From NCBI GenBank assembly GCA_008632985.1, contig QPGO01000055.1, forward strand, positions 1-64,000: a DNA stretch of 64,000 nt. The letters run 5' to 3'. Position 1 is the first letter of the stretch, and each line of letters opens with the position of its first letter. The notes beneath the pieces were generated by a model. It saw only the letters and a program-made list of their open reading frames with translations. It searched no databases and was not told the origin of the DNA. Of the stretch, positions 45,456-64,000 are shown one piece after another. The DNA is from Psammoneis japonica (taxonomy: Eukaryota). A program made the translations under genes and the position numbers.

Positions 45456-48317
45456 TTAGCCGTGAGTTGTGCACTTGTTTGCGCAGCAGTCACAAGAGAC
45501 GCTGCAGTCATAAAGGATCACGGCATTCAGATCGCAAATGTCGGAGGGTATTGTTCCGACTAACTTGTTCCTGTCAATGGAAAACATAGCTAGTGGAACG
45601 ATACAATAATGCGAATGGTAGAATAAGTAAACGAGTGAGTGGTGTCCTTTTGAAAGCAAGTACCATTGCAAACATAAGAACTGACTCGTGTCAATGTTAT
45701 TTGCACACTTACACAGCTTCTTGAGTTTTTGCAAATGCGTAGGTATGGTCCCCTCAATCCGATTAATATGCAACATGAGTGTGTGTAGATTCAAGAGATT
45801 GCCAAGTTCCGTTGGGAGGAATCCAGAAAAGTCGTTGGATGACAAATTGAGAGAATACAGCTTTGTCATCTTGCCCAGCTCCGTGGGAATCGTCCCTCGT
45901 ACATTTACACCAGCAAACGACAGCGCCAAATTGGTCATTTTCAAACAATTACCAATTTCAGATGGAATCGTTCCAACCAAACCGTTCATGTTTTCGCCGG
46001 CGTCAAAGCGTTCTGTACGGTGTGTCGTCAGACGACCGACGACAGAAATCGATGGACTATTTAAGTCTGAACTCATTGAACATCATTGTATGTTGTATCG
46101 GAAGCAACGTTATCAAAAGCGAAACGTACCTAGGTTGCTGAGGAGGCCTATTTCAGTTGGGATTGTACCAACAAGATTTGTTCCGACAATGTTTACCTTG
46201 GCTGACGCGGACACGACGCAACCACGCGCATGCAGATGAGAAACGCTCACTCTGTTAACAAAGCCACAACTTAATCGAAAAACGCAAAACTCACCCAGGT
46301 TTGACAACAAGTAAAGATTGGACGGGAGCGTTCCCGTGAAGTGGTTCCTCCCAGCCATGATTTCGACTGAAATTGAATGAGAATCACGGGTAAAAGAAAG
46401 AGCAGTTACAGTATGGCGCGGAACTTTATCTTTTTCTTACCTGCTTCCTTCCATTCCAAAATAAAATCAAAAAGGGGACCACGCAACTCATTGCTTTCAA
46501 ACGAAACGTACTCTTTGGTTATCAAGGAACGAACGAGGTAAAATACCAGACAAGGTTAGACGCGATTATTAGGTGCACGAAATGTCGGGAGACGAAGAAT
46601 CAACCTACTCAAGCTTGTCAAATCTTTCATCACTTCCGGTAGAGTGCCAGAAACAAGATTGCCGTCCATGTTTAGCGATTCTGTTGGAAGAACGAGGAAG
46701 GGGTTGAGATTGCTACGACTGCCTATGTAAAGTGATCGCAAGGAGAGAAAGCACATGCGAAAATCAAACTTACCCAAGCTTGTCAGATGCCCAATTCGTG
46801 TACTGATTGTAGAAGTAAACTCGTTGAACTGGAAATGAAATGTCCCTGAAATAGACAAGTGGTAAAGGGTGGTTTGAGTAACGGGGACAACGTTAGAATT
46901 TGGTGCGCCCTTTTTCGAAGTCGTGAAACTTACGGAGTTGTGTCAATTGAGAAACGTGAAGAGGTACCGTGCCCTCCAAGCGGTTTTTATCAATGAAGAG
47001 TTGCTCTACGTAGGAATACATATTTTTGAGAACCGAGAGATAACAAGATCATGACGAGAACGAAAAAGATTCTTGGACGTTCACAACTTTAACAGCATAC
47101 GGTAGAACGCGTTACGTACCGAGGTTCGTCATATTTCCAATCTCTTGGGGAACGTAACCAACCATGGAAACAGCGGAGAGGTCCAAAACATTAACTTGTT
47201 TGAATTCGGTACACCGCACTCCTCCCCATTCGCATTCATGAATCGTCTTTAGTGATGTCCAGACCGGGTTGATCCTTCTCCAGTTATCTCCACCGCAGGC
47301 AAAAGAGAGGACCAAGAGGATGTACCTTTGGAGAGGAAATGTGATCTCGTCATCGTAACTATCTCGTAGCATGTCTTCGTAGACAAGCCAATTCAGAGCT
47401 TGCGACTGTGGAGAGGTAGGGTCAAACAGATCTTGGCTACGGGATGTCCCAGTTTCAACCAATGAATTTCTCCATTCGACCTTGAGAGCGTCACGATCGA
47501 TGGAGTGCTTGTCGTCCTGATTCGGACTACTCTTGTCCAATCCGTCATCCTTACTATCTTTGACAAAGACGAATACCACTGCACCTATGGCTCCCAAAAG
47601 AGCTAGGACGCATGCACAAATTATAGCCAAGTGGTGTTTTCTGCGGAATTTCACACCGTCGTTGTGTGATTCTTCTTGCGGCTTTGTTCTTTCTGAGACA
47701 TGCTCTTGTCGATCTTGCTGGGCCTCTTCTTGATCCACGATACTGCCATTATAGCTTGACCGTCCATCTGGCGCATATAATACTTGTTGGGACCGCCAAA
47801 AGGACGACGCGGTTTCAAAAATAGGAAGTCCAGTATCCGCAACAAGCTCAGAGGACGAAGACGCTGAGGATGAGCAGTAATCCTCACTCTCGTGGTCACA
47901 ACCGCCGGGAGAACCATGATCAACATGATCTTCTTGGTCGAAGCTCTCAATCCCGATGTCAACGTCCGCTTCCTCCTCTCGACTCGAAAATGAGCAACTA
48001 CTGTGGACTAACGAGTTCCTTTCGTCGAAACTATTTGTAGCATCATTGTCGTTAACTCCAAGAATTTCCTCTTCCATGTGATCATTACAGCATGATGTTA
48101 CTGTTACAACATCTGGAAGATGAGAATCTATTGGATGAGATCGATGCTGCTGTTTTTCAGATCCTTCGTAAGACGACGAGGAAAAACTGGTATACGTCGA
48201 TAATGCGTTTTCCTCATCACTATCCTCATCTTTTGGGTACGAAGCGGATGCCTTTTCTCCTTCAAGCTCCTGACCCTCATCTTCCTCGAATGTATTTCCA
48301 TTTTGAGCTGTTGACAT
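45456..48317 (-). CDS. Type-II TM leucine-rich-repeat protein (diatom LRR family), many small exons
   Basis: Acidic N-terminus, a TM, SPQSQALNWL..QRYIL..ECEWGGVRC cap, repeated GTIPTELG/GTIPSEIG LRRs split by GT-AG introns, and a terminal CDCC. Confidence 0.88.
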
Positions 48318-48858
48318 TGCGCAAATGTTGATTTTGGCACTCAGTCATTCGATCCCTTGATGGTTGCCTCTGGTATTTCTTTTGTTTCCCATTTTGCTTC
48401 TCCTATCTGCCACTTCGTCCTGTTGTTCCATGCGCCTGCATCCAAGAAGTTAGATTTTGTGGACGATTTTATTGAACTCTGATGAATTGCTCAATAGTTG
48501 CCACCTCTTTGAAGATGCTACATACATTTATGTTAAATTAAACGGTTTTATTTATGGTCAGTCTTATTTTACTTAAGGTCAATATCGAGACTATGTCGCA
48601 GAGATGGCAACTAAAAATATCGCAAACTCTGTCTGCCTGTCACCCGCGCCGCAGCGGTGACGCACGGAACGACACAAAACTCGCAAAACTCCCTCCAACT
48701 TGAACACCAAACCAAAACACCACACATCACCGCCGCGTCGAAGAATAATAGAGTTGTTCTTTGTTCTCTATCTCTCGGTGTTTGTTGTGGGCTATCTTCA
48801 CAAGAAGCAACAGGTCGATTGGCGCATACGGTAAACCAGACTTTCTAATTTTCCCATT

Positions 48859-51800
48859 ATGAAGAGAGAACGGTGTGAAGAATCAAGTGTTTGGCCCAAC
48901 AAGAAAGCGAGTGCTCCTTCAAATACCGGCTTCGCTAACGCACGATGGCCCTTGGTGCCCCCTCAATCGTCATCTCGCCGCCAGAGCCGTTCGTTGCTTG
49001 TTGCCAATGCTCCCCCGGGTCATACAGCTGCGGCTGCTGCTGCTGATGCTGCCATAGGCTCTTCGGCAGCCTCGGCAGCAAGGCCAGCGGGGTCTCCTGA
49101 CGGCAGCATACGGCAGCACATGAGTGACTTGAATACTCTGCAGCAGAAAAGGCCTCCGCAACTGGAGGAAACAGAGAACGAAGAAAAGGATCGGAAACCA
49201 GCTCATATACCTTCGGAAAAGGATAGTTCCAGGATAGCTTCGCTGAGTCCTGCGAGGCTTCAAGCTAAGCACTACATTCCGAGCGCATTATCTGTGATGG
49301 TTGATCAGGAAGATGATTTTTGCGGCTTGAAATTTATGAACAATGCATTTAGGATCGTTTCTGCGGGGGCTTTTACTGTGTGGTTGAGCCTCATAGTCTT
49401 GGCATTTTGGATTACTCCGAGGGAGATGGTGGTGCAGTTGGAAGCGGTGGAGCAACTAGCAGCCACGGTGGCAGCATGCTTAATTGGCCTCGCCATGTGC
49501 ACAAAGATCTTCCCTATCATTATAAAGCGCGGTAGAAGATCTATGAGTGGAATCTTACTAGGGGCAATTACTGTTCAGGCTATTGCTCTTTCCACAAATG
49601 TAATCATGGCATGCTGCCAAGTCCCGATATTGAGAGACCCAGTTACGGGCTCAAAGGTCTTTTTGCTTCGATGGTGTGAATGGGTCCCTCTTGCATTTGC
49701 CATGACGTTCTTTACAGAAGGCATGGGTGTAGTGGGGAAGCATGAATTCCGAAAGCACCCTGACGACAACAGGTCCACGATCTTGTACTATTGGAGCATA
49801 CTGAAAATTCCCATTCTAATGGCCGCAGCTCAAATGGTTTCGACATTTATGGGATACGTATTTCCGTTTTGCCCAGGGATGACTTCCTGGACGATTGCCA
49901 TGGTTTTCTCGTGTGTCCTGTACTTACTAATCTTTCCAAGACTTTACCACAAAAGAAAAGAAGTTCGAGAATCGAGCATGGCTGCAGATGACTCTGAACA
50001 GCATGAACGAGATGTCTTGGCCTATCGATTGCTTTGTACCTGCGTCGTATGTTGGACCCTCTTGGTGGTGTCTTATTTTGTTGGAGCGCTCGCTCATCTT
50101 GTTGCTCCAAAGGATAGCTTTTGGGCAAATCCATCTCTACCGTTTTTCTGCGATGCCACCATCGATGTTGTAGCAAAGGCAGTGTATATGGACATTATAG
50201 TGGATATTCACAGTGTCATGTTTGATGGCCAAGCCCGATCGACCAGACGCTTAGAAGAGCTAAGGCGGATGATGGCTGTGGTTTGGGATTGTTCCTCCGA
50301 TGTTATTGTGCTTTCTGTGAAAGGACTCGACAAAACGGTAACTACGATGATCTCCCCTACTTTCAACAAAATTGAAAATCTGTTGATGAATCATGCTGAT
50401 GATACCGCTCCAATTGTGTTCGAAATGAACGTTGCCGATCTGAAGCAAAATGCTACGAAGAACGTGTTAGAGGCGGCTGATATCTGCTTCTTAGACACTC
50501 GGAAAGCCGATCACGTCTTATCTCGAAAAGAATCGGTCGATCCAGCCTCCCACCCAGCATTTTTGTCCATTCGAAATGTAGTCAGAGAAGGATGGGCAAT
50601 TCCCACTCAAGAGGAAACGATTCTCCACGAAATCGTTTCAACAAATAGAGACGCAATTGCGTGCGAAACCAAGGTAACGCGGCTGGGCTTGCACGCCTTG
50701 GTGCTTGTTCTGCGAGACATTTCGGAACGGCGCATGAGATTCGAAGCCGAGAAAACCGCGATTTCAGAAAGTACCGCCAGAGAAAAGGACGCAGAAGCCA
50801 ATCGCTTTACTCGTCACGAGGTGAAGAATGGACTGTTGGCGTCCATTGGACTATGTGATTCTCTCAGAGAAGCCATTGCTGAGCAGACTGGGCGCCCAAT
50901 CGATAGAACTACTTCAGAGAATTTGAGTAGCCTTCGACTTATGTCTTTGTTGGAATCCAACAAAAAGGAAAAATGGAAGGACCCTCAAGCTTTACAACGG
51001 AATACTTCAGGGCAGGATGGGGGCCAGGCATTGATGACAGATTTGGATTTGACGTTGAGGAATATTCTGGATACTGTTCTCTCGGAAGCCATGGCTAGGG
51101 ATGTCATTCACGAGGTATACAGGCCAAAGTTAGAGAGAGTCAGTCTGCGTTCCGTATTAAGTGGAGGAACCGATAGCTCGGTCACGAACAGATTCCCCTT
51201 TGTGACGGATCCCTCACCCCTCCCTCACTTTATGTTCGACGTGCAACTGCTAAAGTTTATCCACGGCAATGCAGTTTCAAACGCCTGTAAATACGGGAAA
51301 AAAGGTGGGGTGGTTCTGACAGAAGTGCGGCATTTACCTAGAAGCAACGAAATTGTCATGGATGTCATTAATCTTCCCGGAGAAAACCACTCCAGAATTC
51401 TGGCAATGGGAGAAGCAGCGGCAGAAGGTGTCTTTGCGGCTAGCAACAGACTAGAGCTCAACAACCACCTTACCGAGACCACAGCTTCGCATTCCTCAGG
51501 AGACGGTGCTTGGATCTCGCAGAAGTGTGCCAGGACGCTAGGAGGAGCTTGTTCCATTCGATTTGAGCCAAGTAGGACTGTTTTCACTCTTCGTTGTCCG
51601 GCAACGACCTGCGACGCCGCCTTGGGAGTTCCTTCGAACTTCCGACTACCCGATAACACCTGGGGGATAGCTATTGATGATTCAAAAATCCAGCGCAAAA
51701 TGTTACAACGGATTTTCAGTTTGGCTGGGATACCCATGTCACAGCAGGTGCTACTTGGCCAGTCCCTTGAAGAAATCAGAGGCTTTGCCAGAACGGTGGT

Positions 51801-52452
51801 CGACCTTGTGAAGAACCATCCCAATGCTTACTTTCTGGTTATTGTGGACGAAAACCTAGAAATAACAATGGCGAGTCACAAGGAGCAAACGATCTCAGGA
51901 TCTCTTACAATTCAAAAACTACGACAAGAAATGGGCCCCGTTTTAGAAGAACGCATGTTGGCAGTAGTTCGGTCCGCTAACGATTCCTCACACGACATTG
52001 AAGTTTATAATTCTCGCGCACATGGATTTATCCACAAGGCTCCAATAAGCAAGAACAAAGTTATGGAAGTGCTGGCACCTTTGTGGGTCAAGCGATTTGC
52101 TGGAAAATTCCCTGACTCGGTTGATACTGAGGCAGTTGAAGAAGACGACAAGACCGAGCAAGAGGAAACCAAAACAGATCTCGACACGGCCGTTGATACA
52201 GCTTTTGGTGTGATGGAGTCACTAGAAGTAATCGATGCACTTTGTATGGGAGATGAATCCTCTATAGCCCCACGATGGTCTCTGATTAAGGAAAAGCTTC
52301 AAGAGCTAGACGGAGAGCTCCGAACTCTGGAACGAAGCGAAGTCGTTGAAGCCGCCCTTGCTGCTATTTCTTCACTGAACGTGCCTCGCATTCCAATCGA
52401 CTTTCTTTCCCAATGGGCATCTATTCGGGCATTAATCATACGAGTAGTTTAG
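48859..52452 (+). CDS. Rhodopsin-histidine kinase-receiver hybrid (8-TM microbial rhodopsin-like domain, PAS-like linker, HisKA, HATPase, REC, degenerate HPt-like tail)
   Basis: RWCEW (helix C), DVVAK (helix G, K440), RHEVKNGL (H-box, H653), NAVSNACKYG (N-box), GDGAW (G2), IDDSKIQRKML/IVDENL (REC, D997). Single uninterrupted ORF. Confidence 0.85.
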   Translation: MKRERCEESSVWPNKKASAPSNTGFANARWPLVPPQSSSRRQSRSLLVANAPPGHTAAAAAADAAIGSSAASAARPAGSPDGSIRQHMSDLNTLQQKRPPQLEETENEEKDRKPAHIPSEKDSSRIASLSPARLQAKHYIPSALSVMVDQEDDFCGLKFMNNAFRIVSAGAFTVWLSLIVLAFWITPREMVVQLEAVEQLAATVAACLIGLAMCTKIFPIIIKRGRRSMSGILLGAITVQAIALSTNVIMACCQVPILRDPVTGSKVFLLRWCEWVPLAFAMTFFTEGMGVVGKHEFRKHPDDNRSTILYYWSILKIPILMAAAQMVSTFMGYVFPFCPGMTSWTIAMVFSCVLYLLIFPRLYHKRKEVRESSMAADDSEQHERDVLAYRLLCTCVVCWTLLVVSYFVGALAHLVAPKDSFWANPSLPFFCDATIDVVAKAVYMDIIVDIHSVMFDGQARSTRRLEELRRMMAVVWDCSSDVIVLSVKGLDKTVTTMISPTFNKIENLLMNHADDTAPIVFEMNVADLKQNATKNVLEAADICFLDTRKADHVLSRKESVDPASHPAFLSIRNVVREGWAIPTQEETILHEIVSTNRDAIACETKVTRLGLHALVLVLRDISERRMRFEAEKTAISESTAREKDAEANRFTRHEVKNGLLASIGLCDSLREAIAEQTGRPIDRTTSENLSSLRLMSLLESNKKEKWKDPQALQRNTSGQDGGQALMTDLDLTLRNILDTVLSEAMARDVIHEVYRPKLERVSLRSVLSGGTDSSVTNRFPFVTDPSPLPHFMFDVQLLKFIHGNAVSNACKYGKKGGVVLTEVRHLPRSNEIVMDVINLPGENHSRILAMGEAAAEGVFAASNRLELNNHLTETTASHSSGDGAWISQKCARTLGGACSIRFEPSRTVFTLRCPATTCDAALGVPSNFRLPDNTWGIAIDDSKIQRKMLQRIFSLAGIPMSQQVLLGQSLEEIRGFARTVVDLVKNHPNAYFLVIVDENLEITMASHKEQTISGSLTIQKLRQEMGPVLEERMLAVVRSANDSSHDIEVYNSRAHGFIHKAPISKNKVMEVLAPLWVKRFAGKFPDSVDTEAVEEDDKTEQEETKTDLDTAVDTAFGVMESLEVIDALCMGDESSIAPRWSLIKEKLQELDGELRTLERSEVVEAALAAISSLNVPRIPIDFLSQWASIRALIIRVV

Positions 52453-52654: not shown

Positions 52655-53317
52655 ATGTCTCTTCTTTCTGGTGCGTCTAAGGAACAAGCCGTAGCTTCTC
52701 TGGCAGCTTTTGGTATGGTGGTAGTGCTCCAACTAGTTATGGCTCGACGTCAAAACAACTTGACCGCTTCGGCTCGGAGGCAGCTGCAGCATGTCATGAC
52801 GGGACAAGTCTTGATTGGAATTTCCTACATTTTGCCGATCGATATATGCATCAAGCTTCTTGTATTGGGTTGCATCGCAATCGCGGTGGCGAGTCGGACA
52901 CGTTGGTACTTGGAAAACTTTGCACCCCTCCTCCGACCACATGAAAGAGAAAAGGCAGCTCTGCCCGGGGCATTCTATTTTCTTCTTGGAACAATATTGG
53001 TTGCCTACTTTTTTGAACTAGAGATTGCACGATATGCCGTATTGTGCTTATCCTACGCCGACCCATTGGCGTCGTTTGTGGGGCAAAAATACCCACTCGG
53101 AAACATCAATGCGCACACGTCGTTGGGTGGGAGCATCGCTTGCTGGATTACGTCAGCTACGTTGGGAATAATATGCTTTGGCTTTGACTCACTCGCTCAA
53201 GTTATCCTGGGCGCAACAACATGCACTGTGGCGGAAGCAATTCCATTTTTCAATGACAACCTGATGATTCCAATCATGACTGCCGCAAGTATTCATGTAT
53301 ACAATCTGTACTATTGA
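52655..53317 (+). CDS. CTP-dependent polyprenol kinase family membrane protein (phytol/dolichol kinase-like)
   Basis: RRQLQHVMTG, LRPHE, ADPLASFVG, SLGGS, AE..NDNL.IP motifs; multi-TM. Confidence 0.8.
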   Translation: MSLLSGASKEQAVASLAAFGMVVVLQLVMARRQNNLTASARRQLQHVMTGQVLIGISYILPIDICIKLLVLGCIAIAVASRTRWYLENFAPLLRPHEREKAALPGAFYFLLGTILVAYFFELEIARYAVLCLSYADPLASFVGQKYPLGNINAHTSLGGSIACWITSATLGIICFGFDSLAQVILGATTCTVAEAIPFFNDNLMIPIMTAASIHVYNLYY

Positions 53318-53989
53318 AGAGTGCCCTCTGTGTACAAGTATGATCTATTGCTGCACTGCACATGAATTGCAATGATTGCTATTGCTCTCATCAAAGGATT
53401 CATCCACTCTGAGAGTTATCGACGTAACTGCTCTTGATTCTCAATCTAACGCTATTACAGAACGAGGTGGACGCAAAGAACGTTTAGGCTAGGGACCAAG
53501 GATTATTTCACATCTACTCAAGTTTTACTCTTGAGCTCAATTTTGCACTCTGCTCGGTCAATTCATGTCTCTATTAGTGCTATTTCATATAGACACCTCC
53601 TGCGGTGCAAGCTCCGGACACAGGACAGAAGTGATGCGGTCGTAGCCCGCGAAGTGACGAGAGGAGCGAGAGAAACGACTCGGTGCAGAGATGCTTCTCA
53701 GAATTAAAGCGGAGTTGTTACGTTTCATGATGAGGGATTATACTCACGAATCGTGGTATAGAATGTTGGTACACCGAGCAATTCAGATTTCGGAATCAGA
53801 AATAATGTTTGTCACACCTACTTCGTCAAACCGTTTCAAGACATCAGGAGCGTGGTTGTAGCTCCGTTATAAAGTCCGATTTTCGTGCAATCGAAAAGCT
53901 GAGGCAGTCGGCCACCGCATTTCTCCGGCTACAAGCTGCAGTCATCAGACTTGGACTCCACGCCTTGGCATACTTTGAACGATTCACCA

Positions 53990-55790
53990 ATGTTTAGCAA
54001 AGACGAACTGCTATCACACCTTCGACTTGGTCGGTGGGGCAGAGCAAGCGCTGTTCTGAGATCAGAAAGAGGTACAGAACTCGCAAAACAAGTGGACCGT
54101 AACGGAGATTTGCCTCTGCATGTGCTCGTAAGTTGTCTGAATGAGTGGAATGGCGACTTGTTTGATGTTGCCAATCTTTTGATAAAATTGCATCCCGAGG
54201 GTCCGGCAACGAAGAACAACAATGGCGACCTACCGATCCATAGGGCTTCGAAATTTACACATGAAGTTGGTGTGATTACAATGCTTGCAGAGAGTTATCC
54301 CGAGGGTCTCGCGACGCAAAACGAGATGGGAAACCTACCCATTCATGAAGCTGTACAGAAGCCGCGCAACATCAAAGTAGTGAGATGCCTTGTCGAAAGA
54401 TATCAAGAGGGACTAAAGATATCTAACATTAACGGCAACTTGGCGATCCACGAAGCTCTTACCCCCAATGGTTGCGCAGCCGAGATTGTGTCCGAGTTGA
54501 TCACCACGTATCCTCAAGGACTTCAGCAGAAAAATGAGGATGGACGCCTACCGATTCATTTAGCGATCACCATGAGAGATGGTGACGCAGCAATGGCTAT
54601 TGCAAAAGCATTCCCCGAGGGACTAGAGAGACGTGATTATGATGGAAAAGGTTTGCTTCCAATACCCATATATTGCATTCGATCTGGCTGCCCTGCGCAA
54701 AAGGCAGAGGTTGTTTCAGAATTGGTTAAGGTCTACACACGATCGCTTGCAGAAAAGCGGAAGGCGACTAATGAGAAAGCCATGTTGCTGCTCGAAAAAG
54801 AGAACAAGCAGCTCACTGAAGAGCTCGCATTACTCAAATCACAGAAGGTACCGATTGAAGGCGCACTTGACGTAGTGACCAAGGAAAGCTGTGCCAAGAA
54901 GCAGAAAGTGGCAGATGAAACCCGTTCGTTGTTCATGAAGGCGAAAGAGCAGGTCGCCAAGGAGTGCGAGTCACTGAGATCGCAGAAGGCAGCGTTGGAA
55001 GGATCGCTTGCTACTTTAACCAAAAAAAAATGATGTGCTTCAAAATAGAATTTTGGCCATCGAGAAGGAACGAGAAGGAGCGTCTTCTTCGCTTGCCACT
55101 GTGCTAGACGAGAAGGCGACTGTCGAGAGCTCACTTAGTGCAATCACGCAAGAGCGCAATGAACTCCTCGAAGGTCTCGCTTCTGGCAAGGCCGCTCTCG
55201 CTTCTGCTGAGAATGAGAATGTGCAACTTAAAGAAAAGGTTGCATCTCTTCAAGAGGAGAACCTGCGGCTTCGGGACTCGGCGAACTCTGCTAAGTCGTC
55301 GCAACCTCCAGCGAACGAGGAGAAAGATGAGCTCGAAGAGCAGGTAGCTTCTGTCGAGACTGGAGTTGAGGAGTCTCTGTCCATGATTGAAAATTCAGTC
55401 AACGAGGAAGACAGGCAGAATGCTTTTAGCACATTGGGCGAGTTCCTTCTCTCTAGGAAATCAGAACGAGCGGCTATTCACTTGGTAACTGGCGAACTCG
55501 ATGCAGAAGAGTCCCTGGACATGCTCAAAGTCATTGCACGGTCATTGAAGTCTCGAGTCGACTCGTTGAAGAGCAAGGTTTGCCCCGACAGCAAGCCCTC
55601 AGCATTCCATGGAATTCTCGAACACTATCTGAGTTCTCCCGCCGCACGACTGTCGAAAGACTCGCTTCTCCGGGTAGTGGACGAACTGGACAAGGAACTG
55701 TCGGAACTAGAAACCAACCGCATTGAATCAAAGGAAGTTCAGCGCGGTTCTGCTTCAAGTGAAAATATCGGGAGAGGTGATAGTTTGTAG
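53990..55790 (+). CDS. Ankyrin-repeat + coiled-coil protein; frameshift in A9 run at 55022-55030
   Basis: Repeated GDLPLH/GNLPIHEA/YPEGL units. The coiled coil continues in the next frame right after the homopolymer. Confidence 0.8.
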
Positions 55791-56117: not shown

Positions 56118-56347
56118 AAATTTTTCGCAGGTTGAAGGGTTTCGATCGACCTACAGACGATGGCGGGAAACAAGTCTTATCTCTATCTATTTTAGATACT
56201 CTAGAATTGATGGCAATGGCGCAGCGCCGGCAACTGGCATAGCTTCTAACTGCCACGACATTGAAGAGTACTGGAGCAACGTGTTGGTCTGTATCTTTCT
56301 ACATCGTACGAGTACTGTGCAACCTCTGTGGTGTGTGGTGTGAGGCC

Positions 56348-57526
56348 ATGCGATTTGGAAGACATTCTTTGGCAGCTCTTTGTTGGGCTACTGCAAGTCG
56401 AGGCTTTGCGTCGTCTCAATTCATTTCCGTCGCAGCAGCCAGGAGTACATCTACTCGTACTGCGTTTCTAGCATCTCATCATCGACGTCATTTAGTAAAC
56501 AAAAGCAGATTTGTTGGTAAAAGAAACATGTCATCAGAATCAACAACTGCTGTGACAGAGGCGTCTAAATCCAGAATTGCTCTGTTGCAATTCAAAGTCA
56601 CGTCCGATAAGGAAACCAATCACAAGACGGCTTCATCTTATATCAAACGCGCAGTCGATTCTGGTGCCAAAATGGTGGTACTTCCTGAAATTTGGAATTC
56701 GCCGTATGCCACGAGTGCCTTTGGAGATTACGCCGAAGTTCTCAGTCAAGACTCGCTTGTGGACGCTCCTTCGGCCCAATTGCTTGTCGACTTGGCCATG
56801 CTGCATAATATTTGGATTGTTGGTGGAAGCATACCAGAAATCGATAATGAAAAACTATACAATACCTGTCTTGTCATTTCACCCGAGGGAAGCATTGTAG
56901 CTAAGCATCGCAAAATTCACCTTTTTGATGTCAATGTTCCCGGCGGCATTCAATTTCGTGAATCAGATACGCTAGATGCTGGAAGCTCAGTAACATGTTT
57001 TGACAGTGGAGACGACTTTGGTATGGTGGGCGTCGGCATATGGTAAGCTACATTCGTACAGCTGCATCACCTATGGTTCCTTTTAGTGTTTATGTGGATA
57101 CCTCATGAGCTGATTCCGCTTTGCAGCTACGACATTCGTTTTCCAGAGTATGCCATGATTCTCGCTCAAGAGCACAAGTGCAAGCTACTGATTTACCCTG
57201 GTGCCTTTAACTTGACCACTGGGCCTGCCCATTGGGAGTTGCTGATCCGAGCACGTGCCGTCGACAACCAGTGCTTTGTTGTCATGGCGTCTCCGGCTCG
57301 ATCCGACCCACCAAAGGAGGCCGGGAAGTATCCTCATTATACAGCATGGGGACATTCGACTGTTTGCGCACCATGGGGTGATGTTGTTGCAACGACAGAC
57401 GAGAAGGAAAGTCTGGTGGTAACTGACTTGAACTTTGATCTTGTGGAGGAAATGCGACAGGCTATTCCGTGTGGCAATCAGAAGCGTCATGATTTGTACA
57501 AGGTACAAGAAGTTAAGGAATCGTAG
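56348..57526 (+). CDS. NIT2: Omega-amidase NIT2 (carbon-nitrogen hydrolase) with organellar presequence
   Basis: LPEIWNSPY, HRKIHLFD, GICYDIRFPE (across intron 57043-57126), FNLTTGPAHWELL.RARAVDNQ. Confidence 0.92.
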
Positions 57527-59449: not shown

Positions 59450-61611
59450 TGCCAACGGCATTCTTTGCAACTTGTCGCCACCTGTCGAGGCCGCAGCAGC
59501 AGTTGCAAACTTTTGACGAAGGGAGCGACATGCACCAACCCTTGTTCGGCTGTGGCTGCCACCCCTCCTGCAGCCGCCGGTGGAGCACCGCCGGCACCCC
59601 CAAAAACATGCCATGACAAGTGGATGAGCCAAGGAGATCAGTTGGGTGGGGAGTGTGCGAATTTATTTCGCCGGTGCGACACCACCGTCGCTGCTCCCGA
59701 GCCGGCCGCCACGCCACTCGAGCACATCATCGACTTGAGCGACTTGGTGCCAAAAGCCTTTTTGGCTCTAGCACGGCAAGGCGCAGGTTGTCGTGTCACC
59801 TGCATCCACCGGCCCTCAGTTTGTGTCAGAGACCCGGTGGAGACCTCGCCGTGGGACGGTCGTGTGTTTTGTTTTCAAGGAGACATCCTCCCCGGTAACT
59901 TCATTGCCATTCTTGAGATGCCCAACACTCCGTTCGACATCGTGGGGCCGCAGGTGGTGCCTGCGGTGGCTGACATGGCCACCCTAGAAGGTGTCTTGGC
60001 GGACGAGAACGATCCAATGCCGCCTCAGACCGACGGCGCCCCGGATGCCAACACGATCTACGTCCGTCATCTCGTGCAAGTGCCCCGCGCATGTCTGCAT
60101 CTTGTGTTGACTCGGGATCTCACCCCGCTGCAAGCATGGCACAAACTGGCCGGAGCGATTCAAAATGACGGATGCGCGGGGGACTTGAGCCCTCTCATCG
60201 ACTGGCTGCGTGCGGCCCTCACTGCCGACACTGCAGCGAATCCCGATCCGGTTCATTGCCTGGGCAACCGTGCCACTGCGTTGCCGCCACTCGCGGTGGA
60301 CGCCAGATTGCAGGAGCATCGTTGGCATGCGTTGTTGCAAGACCTGCCCGCCTTGGACACAATGGCCGTCGACAACACCGACCGGGTGCTCGCCTTTGCC
60401 AACGCAGTGCGTGTCGCGGCCGCGGCCTCAGCTCCAAAAATGCCGGCTGAAGCCTTCCCTCAAACTGCACCCTTGTGGCTCTTGCTCTCAAGCGCACCGG
60501 ATGATGCAGCCCTGCCTGCGCTGCACCACGCTTGGGCCAACAGCACCAAGGCCGAGCGGCGCCTGTGCTTTGCTCACGCCTTGGAAGCCCGTGCCCAAGA
60601 ACCCGATGCTGCGTCTCGCACAGCACCTGCAGTTTCAAAGGAGTTACACGAGATGGTGTTGCAAGGAAAGGCAGCACCCCACGTGCACCAAGTGAACGAC
60701 TTGACCGCCGGCGTCTCCCCGTTTGCTTGTGGTTTCTTTCTCGCCGGCCAAGGCTCTGCCGCACAAGTTCGGGCCGAACGCTGTGACCTGGCATTAGCGG
60801 GCAACTTGACGCCCACCGTTGCAGAGCAAGAAGAGTTCCGGACCAAGGACACACCTCTGCCCTCGTCCACCTGCCATTGTGGGAGCATGCTCCAAGCTGC
60901 CAGCTTGGTCTTGGACGTCATCCAAGGGTCGAATCATCCCCATGCAGTGGCGTTCCTGCAGCTCTGCTTGGAAGACTGGCGGGACATGGTCGACTTGCTC
61001 GAGCAATCAGGAGCGTTGCTGGCTGAAGGAAACGCACTCCCCCGCATTTGTCGTGAGGTGCAGACACTCATGGGGGTTTGTCTCCGCAGGCTCATGCAAG
61101 GCGGCATGCCCCGAGCGCCCGATTACACGGCGGTGGCGTGCAAGGTCTTGCACGGGCAATTCTCCCTGTTGGCACAATTGCCCCATCATTTGCTCGGCCA
61201 GCCAGACCAGGCGACTAACCCCCAGGTGAGCTCGACCAGCGCCAGCAACAGTGGCACCCCTTCCACAGCAGCTGCCGCGGCTGGGCGTCGCGACCCTGGT
61301 GCAGCTGTTGCGAACCCCAACCCGGTGCGATCGTGGCCAACTGCCTTCGCACAGGCCAGGATTGCCTGGCCACGGTGCGACGTTTCGCGCCTCGAACCAC
61401 AGACTCGAGTGGTGCCGCGTGCGAGGTGTGCCTGTCGCACCACCTCAAAGGAACGTGCTTTGCCAACTGTGAGTGCAGTGGTGCGCACCGAAACCTCTCG
61501 CTGCGAGAGAGGACGGCTGTGAGCACCTTCGTTCGCGACCACGTGTCCAACCCCCAGGAAGGTGGCGCCCCAGCGCCGGCACCCACGCCGGCACCGGCGG
61601 CATCCACCTGA
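59450..61611 (+). pseudogene. gag-like ORF1 of the YR retrotransposon (frameshifted)
   Basis: Long Ala/Pro-rich ORF ending, after a frameshift, in CLSHHLKGTCFANCECSGAH. Confidence 0.7.
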
Positions 61612-61662
61612 GGACGGGGGCCGGCTGGCCCCAGAGCCAGCCTGCAGCCCTCCTCTGCTTGC

Positions 61663-63720
61663 TTGCCAGATCCGCATCAGCAGCACCCACGCAGCAACGA
61701 ACTAGGTGAGTTAGCAGAGGAACATGTTAAACTCCTGCACACTTTAGGCTGGAGCCAGTTCGTTGCACACCTGTGCAGGGAGCCGTGTCTGGCTGAGAAT
61801 GTTCAGCAGTTACCCCATCCTGCTGCCAAGCTTCTTTCTAGTCTCCGTAACGACGGAGCTCCGGCACAGTTCTCAACGGAGGACTGGACATCGGACCAGG
61901 TCCGGATGGCCACCGAACGCGGTAGGCCATCCATCCACCAACGAGTGCCTGGGCTTCCTCGAGTCGGACATGGCGGACATGATCCAGAAGCGACACTGGA
62001 CAGTCTTGCCGTACCGCGAAGCCTGCAAGCTGCCCCACCTGCGCGTCTCACCAATGGGCGTGGTGCCGCAACGCGACCGCCGCCCGCACACCATCGTGGA
62101 TTACAGTTTCTACGGTGTCAACGACGAAACCGTGAAACATGCCCCTCCGGAAGCCATGCAATTCGGTCGCGCGCTTGACAGGTTCTTGTGCAATGTCTTC
62201 CGCACCAATCCGAAACACGGCCCAGTGCACATGCTGAAACTCGACCTCTCTGACGGTTTCTATCGCGTGGGGCTTCGCCCCCAGGACATGCCCAAGCTTG
62301 GGGTGGCCTTCCCAGCAGGCCCGGGCGAGGAACGCTCACAGCGCTACCTCTCGTCCTGCCCATGGGCTGGACGGAGAGTCCACCTTTCTTTTGTGTTGGA
62401 ACGGAGACTGCAATCGACTTGGCAAACAACCACGTGCCTGCAGCTTGGGACCCTCCGATTCATCCACTTGAACAAGCGGCAGCCACACCAGCACCCCATG
62501 ACGACACCTTGCGGATCGATGTGCCGCCGCCTTCTAATGCAGCCCCAGCTAGCCGCGTCTCACGCCTTCCTTCGCCCGCCGCTCTTCGTCGCAGACGCCA
62601 ACGCGGCTCCCAGCCATTGGAGTGCTTCGATGTCTACGCAGACGATGAGATGTGCGCGGCACAAGGTTCAAAAGCGCGTCTCAACAAGTTACGTCGTCGC
62701 CTCCTGCATGTCAATGACCAAGTCTTCCGTCCCAACACAACTGCCGATGCACACTGGCGCCGCGAAACTATCTCACTGAAGAAACTCCTCAAAGGAGACG
62801 CGTCGTGGTCAATGGTCAAGGTCATTTTGGGCTGGCTCATTGACACCCCAGCGGGTGCCATGCAATTGCTGCCGCATCGACGACAACGCCTCCTGGACAC
62901 ACTTGCCGACACCATCCCGCACCGCCGCGTGTCAAACAAGCATTGCCATAAACTCATTGGCGAAGCACGCAGCATGTTGTTGGCGGTTTCTGGCGGTGCC
63001 GGCCTGCTCTCCAATCTCCAGCACTCGCCAGCCACCTCAAGTGACTCCCGCACTCGGATCAACCGTCATGCGCGCCGTCAACTCCAAGACTTGCACGCCC
63101 TGGCCGTCGACATTGCTTCTCGTCCCACAAGGCTTGCCGAGCCATTCCCTGCCGCCGACGGGCACCACTGCGGTGCATGCGATGCCGCCAAGCCAGGTTT
63201 TGGTGGCGTGTTGTCACCAGGCCCCAGTGACGACTTCCCTCCTACAGCATGGCAAGTTCCGCTACCACCGGACCTGCAGGCCGCCATTGTTTCGGACGAC
63301 AACCCCGCTGGAACAATGACCAACTCCGATCTCGAGCTAGCCGGCACAGTGCTTCAAGAAGCCGTCGTCGGCATCGCCATCGATGTCAGGGAACGCACGG
63401 TCCACATGTGCTGTGACAACACCCCGGCCATCTCTCGGCGCGGAAAAGGCTCTGTCACCACCGACGGTCCCGGCGCCGACATGTTGCGGACCGGCAGTCT
63501 CCAACAACGAAAACTCCGACACATCTCCCGCTTCCATTGCATGCCTGGTCCAGCCAATCTCCTCGCCGACATGTGCTCCCGGAAATTCACCACACCCTCT
63601 CACCTCCTTGCAACTCTCACTCGCCTTGCTCCACAGACGAAACCTTGGCAAATGCTTCACCCGCGCCCGACATCGTTTCTTCACTGATCTCCGCCTTGCG
63701 ACGGCAAAGGCCCGCGAAGC
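61663..63720 (+). pseudogene. Reverse transcriptase-RNase H (frameshifted)
   Basis: SPMGVVPQRDRRP..IVDYS, KLDLSDGFYR, MGWTESPPFFC, YADD, CDAAKPGFGG, NSDLELAG, CDNTPA, GPANLLAD. Confidence 0.9.
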
Positions 63721-64000
63721 TGTCACTGCTGAGCGAGCCCGTGCCACGGACACCGTCTGGGCCAAGTGCTGGTTGCCTTTCTTGTCCGACATCGGAATCG
63801 ACAACCCTCTCCTCACCAGCGTCCAAGACAAAATCCCAATGCTCTGAGTCTTTGCCCATCGCCTTGGGGATGGATGCCTCAGCCGCAGCGGTGACCCAAT
63901 CTCAGCTCCGCATGTTCGTGACGAAGTCCTTCACGTCGCGGAGACGTTCACCGAACTGGGTGCCCCGGACCCGCGTCCAATGCCACACGGCATGATGGAC
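63660..64000 (+). pseudogene. Tyrosine recombinase N-terminal region (premature TGA at 63845-63847)
   Basis: W..FL..IGIDNPLL...L*VFAHRL.DG.LSRSG.PI...V......VAETFTELGAPDPR, typical of the N-terminal part of YR-element recombinases. Confidence 0.7.

Follow-up and report, generated by a model that had tools for sequence, protein, structure and literature searches.

The question raised by this locus is whether a diatom gene encodes a light-regulated two-component kinase. The stretch analysed (the window) comprises 64,000 nucleotides of Psammoneis japonica contig QPGO01000055.1, and its forward strand carries at positions 48859-52452 an open reading frame, P0001, of 1197 codons plus TAG, read in a single frame without internal stop. 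An earlier note, made from the letters of the DNA, had described it as an eight-helix rhodopsin joined to a histidine kinase and lacking a cyclase. Judged from sequence and structural models, P0001 is a real, intact gene for a strongly diverged rhodopsin histidine kinase, one of a large family in diatoms and pelagophytes, and its product probably works as a retinal-binding, light-regulated phosphorelay kinase. Statements from the literature refer to excerpts of the papers cited. The parts of the gene are as follows (window coordinates, strand, feature).

48859..52452, + strand: complete open reading frame of P0001, single exon, 1197 amino acids; rhodopsin, PAS-like, histidine kinase, receiver and HPt-like parts
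48859..49314, + strand: N-terminal tail, residues 1-152; hydrophilic, low-complexity
49315..50223, + strand: eight-helix type-1 rhodopsin domain, residues 153-455 (extra N-terminal helix TM0 = 153-185, then A-G), placed by AlphaFold2, Foldseek, VIA and profile
49669..49683, + strand: helix C motif R271-W-C-E274-W275, at the bacteriorhodopsin R82/D85/W86 positions
50152..50178, + strand: helix G with D432, putative counterion D436 and predicted Schiff-base K440, from conservation and alignment to D-x3-K
50227..50292, + strand: helical linker, residues 457-478, extending helix G to the cytoplasm; a helix in both models
50296..50721, + strand: PAS-like domain, residues 480-621, ending in R-D-I-S-E-R; beta/alpha pattern in the model
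50722..51108, + strand: signalling helix and DHp, residues 622-750; predicted phospho-acceptor H653 at 50815-50817
51109..51612, + strand: HATPase_c domain, residues 751-918; N box intact, Asn in the G1 box, G2 box G-D-G-A
51646..52104, + strand: receiver, residues 930-1082; D940-D941, predicted phospho-acceptor D997 (51847-51849), S1039, K1060
52147..52449, + strand: HPt-like four-helix bundle, residues 1097-1197; here Q1148-E-L-D1151-G-E, His lost

The start codon was taken as M1, the first ATG of the frame, with M88 and M147 remaining as alternative starts. In the part scanned for hydropathy, hydrophobic segments begin only after residue 160, and the tail of residues 1-152 is presumably cytosolic. 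R271-W272-C273-E274-W275, D436-V-V-A-K440, H653 and D997 were located exactly where the earlier note had put them. A Pfam scan left the rhodopsin, HisKA, receiver and cyclase families all unmatched and returned HATPase_c alone (E 0.007, below the cut-off), and phmmer with the membrane domain against PDB sequences gave 0 matches at E<=10. Since both searches were silent, homologues and structure were needed to settle the rhodopsin claim.

The membrane region was modelled with AlphaFold2 (residues 150-480, 121 sequences; pLDDT 93.6, pTM 0.90), a check that had been proposed beforehand, and the fold matched type-1 rhodopsins, not another fold. The model contains eight long membrane helices (153-185, 196-228, 231-252, 269-289, 304-337, 341-374, 379-415 and 427-455), a beta-hairpin joining B and C, and a helix that persists beyond G. 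The eight hydrophobic segments counted earlier were recovered in this model but not in a Kyte-Doolittle scan (window 19, cut 1.5), which gave six clusters (162-187, 191-223, 231-257, 317-335, 340-364 and 385-417); the lower hydrophobicity of helices C and G keeps them below the cut. Foldseek placed four rhodopsin phosphodiesterase (Rh-PDE) chains first (7d7q best, E 1.2e-5 to 3.2e-5), followed by sensory rhodopsin II and bacteriorhodopsins. In the VIA structural search, Rh-PDE 7d7q was aligned at Z 21.9 (root-mean-square deviation (rmsd) 3.6, 263 aligned residues) over the model range 10-318, TM0 included. Ranks 1-36 were all microbial rhodopsins, counting 5jsi and 7ytb, which we take to be such, with pumps at Z 18-20; the first non-rhodopsin, TMEM87A, scored Z 14.0. 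An Atlas search yielded rhodopsin clusters at 0.82-0.85 and served as a lead only. By its model, the domain is of type Ib, with the extra helix TM0 and eight helices in all, and from the even helix number together with the cytoplasmic-type C-terminal domains we infer that both termini are cytosolic.

Homologues were searched with residues 155-660, which gave 238 proteins among 8000 scored candidates; the best 120 were aligned, unfiltered, and cover this region of P0001 to 99-100%. R271 and K440 are invariant in these 120, W275 is kept in 118 and E274 in 109. Position 436 is Asp in 100 and Glu in 19, and an extra family acid occupies position 432, one turn from D436 (Glu in 115, Asp in 4). H653 is present in 119/120 and the H-box H-E-V-K-N-G in 117-119/120, D997 is found in 70 of the 73 rows reaching that position, and the linker motif R-R-L-E-E-L is almost invariant in the family alignment. 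Conservation at R271, K440, W275, E274, 436, H653 and D997 indicates that the placement of the motifs is more than chance. For the membrane region alone, an alignment of 43 rows (A2) was drawn from metagenome loci (59 of 79 tried), keeping the 43 that were stop-free and carried the helix G motif, with one near-duplicate dropped; its lysine conservation follows from the construction of the motif filter and was not counted as evidence. Searched against 1.84 billion sequences, the A2 profile reached 454 clusters (50% identity) at E<=0.001; 360 of them remain at 1e-10 and 208 at 1e-30. Residues were counted in the best 150 of the 454 (152 domain rows). Among these representatives, K440 is kept in 134/134 rows with a residue, R271 in 143/145, W399 in 143/144 and an acid at 436 in 132/135.

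Against 177635 PDB sequences, the A2 profile gave two matches at E<=10, both to Rh-PDE (E 0.013 and 0.017), and the alignment sets R-W-C-E-W against R-Y-A-E-W. A set of prokaryotic type-1 rhodopsins was assembled from the 63 of 120 loci that passed the motif filter. With hhalign, A2 was aligned to it across helices A-G (218-220 columns) at E 8.9e-4 in local and 8.7e-6 in global mode, versus 0.19 and 0.39 for the reversed-profile control. D436/K440 were paired with D-x3-K, W399 with the helix-F Trp and R-W-C-E-W with R-Y-A-D-W, and S351, G332, S328 and Q325 fell on partner positions in the prokaryotic rhodopsins, presumably S141, G122, M118 and D115 of bacteriorhodopsin. The sites described as conserved in the pocket and counterion of type-1 rhodopsins (Arg 3.42, counterions 3.45/7.46, Trp 3.46 and the helix-F Trp; PMC13739731, section 10) are present as R271, E274, D436, W275 and W399. 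The canonical T-T/C-P of helix C and W-x-x-Y/F-P of helix F are absent and are replaced by V276-P277-L278-A279-F280 and W399-T-L-L402-V403; positions 3.50/3.51 differ between rhodopsin families and 6.53/6.54 are usually conserved (PMC13739731). The earlier remark that helix C lacks T-T-P was literally correct but passed over a Pro conserved three residues earlier (P277, 116/120, with Thr before it in 57). This Pro is matched by hhalign through a three-residue gap; in an ungapped alignment, the conserved M282 falls on bacteriorhodopsin position 93 (BR93), where many histidine kinase rhodopsins (HKRs) carry Met (PMC7693036, whose numbering of D85, T89, T90, D96, D212 and K216 is used).

The cytoplasmic part (residues 460-1197) was modelled from 100 rows (pLDDT 85.9, pTM 0.65). 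It runs from the linker helix through a beta/alpha domain, a 56-residue helix with H653, a second DHp helix, an ATPase fold and a five-strand receiver to four helices. The top Foldseek matches were PAS/LOV-kinase structures (WalK model, LOV-kinase chimeras, 4gcz and 4i5s; E 1e-11 to 1e-9, 464-476 columns), and VIA aligned VicK 4i5s across model residues 1-457. The label PAS-like for residues 480-621 is suggested by these whole-chain matches; a profile of the region gave no PAS match among PDB sequences (0 matches), and Pfam PAS was matched weakly by one of 42 members. The DHp core superposed on those of CusS, HK853 and ShkA at Z 15.9-16.5 (CusS 16.5), the ATPase domain on the catalytic domains of ETR1 and ThkA at Z 14.9-15.1 (rmsd 2.8), and the receiver on CheY 6tg7 (Z 15.3, rmsd 2.1) and the SLN1 receiver 1oxb (Z 14.3, rmsd 2.1). 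The G1-box Asn also occurs in E. coli CusS, whose boxes were read from its gene, and the receiver catalytic residues D940, D941, D997, S1039 and K1060 (D11, D12, D68, S110 and K131 of alignment A4) are invariant in 40 rows. As modelled, the DHp His, the ATPase N and G boxes and the receiver Asp lie in one chain, as in HKRs. Fold searches, profile alignments and the kinase and receiver folds agree on the proposed fusion of an eight-helix type-1 rhodopsin with a hybrid histidine kinase, and the fusion of opsin and kinase is family-wide. The absence of a cyclase was likewise upheld: Pfam detected no guanylyl cyclase in P0001 or 41 full-length relatives, and the model terminates in the four helices. 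The H-box, ATPase and receiver domains of the earlier architecture stood, but the PAS-like domain (480-621) and the HPt-like bundle (1097-1197) had been overlooked.

In the family, the second helix of this bundle carries the motif W-x(6-8)-H-x-L-K-G-D, which resembles H-K-I-K-G of ArcB and H-V-I-K-G of the HPt encoded in the same genome. Motif, position and helix pattern make homology of the bundle to HPt quite likely. The bundle is matched by 99 of 265 proteins, and in the 98 besides P0001 the His position is His in 89, Gln in 4, Phe in 3, Arg in 1 and Leu in 1, with the Lys kept in 93. In P0001, Q1148 stands for the His, D1151 for the Lys and E1153 for the Asp. Three of seven conserved HPt-like columns are altered, exceeding all 65 homologues compared; the other five of six regions deviate within the family range. 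The GC content at third codon positions (GC3) is 0.40 in the HPt-like part versus 0.47-0.49 elsewhere in P0001. The tree neighbours P0002, P0004 and P0011 (clade SH-aLRT 96; quick tree, midpoint root) retain the His, so its loss in P0001 looks recent, and a single sequencing error is unlikely because several base changes are involved. Pfam Hpt was matched in the bundle by one of 17 proteins (E 0.02), and an Atlas lead (0.89) pointed to a cluster with 24% Hpt. The bundle profile found nothing in exon 2 of the HPt gene of the same genome and did not rise above shuffles against ArcB and BarA, and a profile of receiver plus HPt region gave one irrelevant match among PDB sequences. The fold search of the 738-residue model listed no HPt structures, its rows covering 179-459 and 473-622 only. 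A complex of receiver and bundle, predicted without the use of alignments, scored 0.08, which is no evidence either way. Pelagophyte members gave no match to the HPt-like bundle, so the fused bundle appears dispensable.

Members of the family are mostly nameless; the named ones are diatoms and one pelagophyte. The diatoms cover centric and pennate genera (Thalassiosira, Skeletonema, Detonula, Cylindrotheca, Entomoneis, Odontella, Corethron, Seminavis, Rhizosolenia, Proboscia, Licmophora, Cyclostephanos and Ditylum), and the pelagophyte, Pelagophyceae sp. CCMP2097, contributes four proteins with both motifs. Pattern-based scans confirmed 0 of 50 pattern matches on viral contigs and 0 of 10 on prokaryotic genome contigs; these scans are limited by the pattern and are no proof of absence. 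In the P. japonica genome, three protein searches gave P0001 as the single match, a lower bound for paralogues. Several relatives differ in layout. A clade of P0257/P0215, P0225, P0217, P0211, P0210 and P0193 (SH-aLRT 99) comprises rhodopsin plus PAS-like proteins without a kinase motif, possibly non-catalytic partners, although some may be truncated predictions; P0257 (Entomoneis paludosa) runs on in low-complexity sequence, and Ala replaces its helix-C Glu. In P0238 the PAS-like domain is missing and the kinase helix follows helix G directly; this protein also has a degenerate helix-C motif, and Phe in place of the HPt-like His. P0198, a predicted protein, carries a piece of a cyclic-nucleotide phosphodiesterase (Pfam PDEase_I, E 1.7e-14) upstream of the family rhodopsin domain, which may be a gene-calling fusion. 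Two H-box matches each in L012, L024, L058 and L061 (4 of 71 related loci with a match) suggest tandem paralogues.

In the mechanism we propose, the eight-helix type Ib rhodopsin would bind retinal at K440 within the membrane, the counterion positions being taken by D436 and E274. Light-isomerised retinal would shift helix G and its cytoplasmic extension, and the PAS-like domain and long signalling helix would relay this shift to a dimeric histidine kinase. Autophosphorylation of H653 would be altered, and with it phosphate transfer to D997 in the receiver of the same chain. The C-terminal HPt-like His could accept the phosphate next in most diatom members; as the fused His is missing in P0001, its output should exit through a separate, genome-encoded HPt to other response regulators. 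Both the dimer and this phosphate route are what we infer for P0001. The genome search gave a single Hpt match, a stand-alone two-exon gene (L082, G000:C17:137664-137873) that has an intact His motif and a score above the Pfam cut-off. The genome also contains 10 receiver matches, five of which share a frame with kinase domains among 9 frames scanned, and 14 RPE65/carotenoid-oxygenase matches, which could include a source of retinal. In Cr2c-Cyclop1, an eight-helix opsin with His-to-Asp transfer, light inhibits the transfer and K298A abolishes light control (PMC6284317). By analogy, light may inhibit the P0001 kinase as well, which is a guess leaning slightly to that side.

Several findings weigh against a light-regulated retinal protein. 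hhalign gave modest probabilities (23% and 64%), and Pfam PF01036 (Bac_rhodopsin) is unreached by P0001, weak in 6 of 43 members (best E 0.0066) and below its cut-off in the best full-length relative (E 0.0012, 18.8 versus 24.6 bits). L402-V403 take the place of the helix-F Tyr-Pro and Q325 that of D115, the helix-C Pro comes three residues early with ambiguous register, and E274 is replaced in 11 of the 120 homologues. K440 is predicted from alignment to face the retinal pocket. A Blh-type dioxygenase was not found in the P. japonica genome, where searches with PF01036 and PF15461 gave no match anywhere, controls included. Of the profile tests for an HPt, three were negative or weak. A rhodopsin-derived sensor that uses neither retinal nor light, in which the Lys and acids are structural or hold a different ligand, with the kinase responding to a chemical or membrane cue, would accommodate the diverged pocket (L402-V403, Q325, shifted P277), the counterion variants of P0257 and P0238 and the missing Blh with its uninformative control. 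We regard such a sensor as unlikely, for the charged mid-helix-G Lys is retained throughout (120/120 and 134/134) together with R271, W275, W399 and the acid at 436, which are the conserved pocket and counterion sites of PMC13739731. Less probable again is a retinal photoreceptor that acts as a phosphatase or non-catalytic heterodimer partner and drains or gates the phosphate of other hybrid kinases. Its His-less bundle would be a pseudo-HPt brake, of which plant AHP6 is an example. The G2 box G-D-G-A deviates from G-x-G-L, the ATPase is below the Pfam cut-off in most members, loss of the HPt-like His recurs in 9 of 98 others and a supported clade (SH-aLRT 99) includes members without kinase motif; yet near-invariance holds for H653 with the Glu after it, for the N box and for every catalytic residue of the receiver, and the catalytic core superposes on active kinases.

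It is very improbable that, in a family of photoreceptors, the P0001 copy is decaying and nonfunctional. The changed HPt-like columns and the lower GC3 of that part would fit decay, but the 3.6-kb frame is stop-free, five other regions deviate within the family range, and a single copy was found in three genome searches (lower bounds); a pseudogene reading was rejected. Scarcely credible, finally, is a heliorhodopsin-like or ion-transporting rhodopsin to which the kinase was joined by an accident of gene structure. Heliorhodopsin 6is6 scored Z 18.0, and the start of helix C in heliorhodopsins resembles R-W-x-E; however, Rh-PDE with TM0 outscores it (Z 21.9), the position of bacteriorhodopsin D96 is hydrophobic in both registers (F285 or M282) and the fusion is found throughout the family. 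Asp or Glu (100 and 19 of 120) stands four residues before the Lys, where heliorhodopsins have Ser (PMC13739731). The lack of this Ser, and eight helices instead of seven, led to the rejection of a heliorhodopsin identity.

The light-regulated kinase that we favour can be compared with known systems. HKRs (Chlamydomonas Cop5/HKR1, Cop6/Cr2c-Cyclop1 and Cop7, Ostreococcus Ot-HKR, Guillardia GtRh4-8, and BgRh1/2) share with P0001 an eight-helix opsin followed by DHp, ATPase and receiver, and an Asp-x3-Lys helix G; the Glu at BR85 is also found in OtRh1/2, MpuRh1 and BgRh1/2, and a hydrophobic BR96 in HKRs (PMC7693036). The missing cyclase had been put forward as a distinguishing trait, which did not survive comparison: cyclase-less HKRs are tabulated in PMC7693036, with kinase and receiver but no Cyc in Cop7, Cop11, Cop12, OtRh1/2, OlRh1-4, GtRh4-8, BgRh1/2 and others, and a cyclase is present in only some HKRs (PMC12558739). 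Its absence was rejected as a novelty, being common among published HKRs. HKRs carry Thr/Ser-Thr/Ala at BR89/90 and are caught by rhodopsin profiles, whereas the P0001 opsin is unseen by Pfam. In 2c-Cyclops the kinase follows the opsin immediately (PMC6284317), whereas P0001 has the PAS-like domain in between and the HPt-like bundle after the receiver, neither of which is listed among the modules in the excerpt of PMC7693036. A 2c-Cyclop also ends in a guanylyl cyclase, which P0001 lacks, so it is not a 2c-Cyclop. Judged from sequence, P0001 would function like an HKR, and it differs in its lineage, invisibility to profiles, PAS-like insert and HPt-like tail; the family tree holds family members only, without HKR sequences.

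Salpingoeca rosetta Rh-PDE (7cj3, 7d7q), the best structural and the only PDB sequence-profile match to the P0001 opsin, has TM0 and helices 1-7, counterions E164/D292, W165/W264 and a linker past helix 7 (bioRxiv 2020.04.14.040642). It differs in its low identity (13-15%), in a PDE effector instead of the kinase relay, and in the helix-C T168-C169-P170 and helix-F F267, which are not kept in P0001, as well as in lacking the extra acid at 432; its top rank may come from the scarcity of solved eight-helix rhodopsins. Unorthodox hybrid kinases that carry an HPt (E. coli ArcB, BarA) and PAS/LOV kinases (WalK/VicK, YF1) share with the family the order PAS, DHp, ATPase, receiver and His-bearing helical bundle, and the H-x-x-K-G motif. 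P0001 differs in that its sensor is a rhodopsin, the profile score for an HPt is insignificant and the His is absent. Known diatom rhodopsins (proton-pumping xanthorhodopsins and heliorhodopsins; PMC12557545, PMC8413402) have the retinal-type fold in common with P0001 and no kinase, whereas P0001 has TM0, the type-1 helix G motif and a phosphorelay.

Around P0001, the window contains a leucine-rich-repeat-like gene identified by eye (45456-48344, - strand), a small multi-pass membrane protein that is phytol/dolichol kinase-like by eye without a Pfam match (52655-53317, + strand), an ankyrin-repeat protein (53903-55033, + strand) and a carbon-nitrogen hydrolase (56243-57526, + strand). These four neighbours are not conserved next to relatives, and a comparison of 8 window open reading frames with 79 related loci, many of them short, gave no match; the gene neighbourhood is not conserved. 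At 59600-64000 the GC content is 0.60-0.62 versus about 0.47, the observed/expected ratio of the TA dinucleotide is 0.19 versus 0.44 in the remaining window and a reverse-transcriptase-like motif is seen by eye, so that this part looks like a mutated retroelement. Elsewhere in the genome, a GAF-HisKA-HATPase-receiver kinase truncated at its contig start (L095, G000:C192:1-2301) could be a phytochrome- or ethylene-receptor-like sensor.

In the literature searched, from which subscription reviews were outside the scope, a diatom rhodopsin kinase is undescribed, and 17 uncharacterised clusters of PMC13739731 may hold the family. The HKR passages of PMC7693036 and PMC6284317 name no diatom or pelagophyte HKR, and the excerpt of an ocean transcript survey reports zero rhodopsin-histidine kinase transcripts (PMC8017926). 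The photoreceptors described for diatoms are aureochromes, cryptochromes, phytochromes, heliorhodopsins and GPCR-like proteins (PMC8413402), along with proton pumps (PMC12557545). Inventories of marine algae use rhodopsin profiles, for example in Pfam-based selection (bioRxiv 10.64898/2026.09.29.755320); the family falls below such profiles, so standard annotation misses these candidate light sensors. It is possible, although doubtful, that the family is a separate enzyme-rhodopsin lineage, with an opsin-kinase fusion of its own in ochrophytes that expanded in centric and pennate diatoms and runs a light-His-Asp-His relay in one chain. Such a relay might be tuned, as tentatively, by modular paralogues, namely kinase-less rhodopsin-PAS forms, a PAS-less form and His-less pseudo-HPt forms like P0001. 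If this were true, the unusual pocket (shifted helix-C Pro, no helix-F Tyr-Pro, third acid at 432) may give new photochemistry, and the family could supply the green-range sensory photoreceptor still missing from diatoms. Seminavis robusta shows a green-light mating response (PMC8413402) and carries a family member (P0205), and the finding makes a green-range light response of diatoms directly testable. The family is also a potential new scaffold for optogenetic two-component tools, and a rhodopsin kinase of such wide occurrence would give a further sensory input to diatoms, which are central to ocean production.

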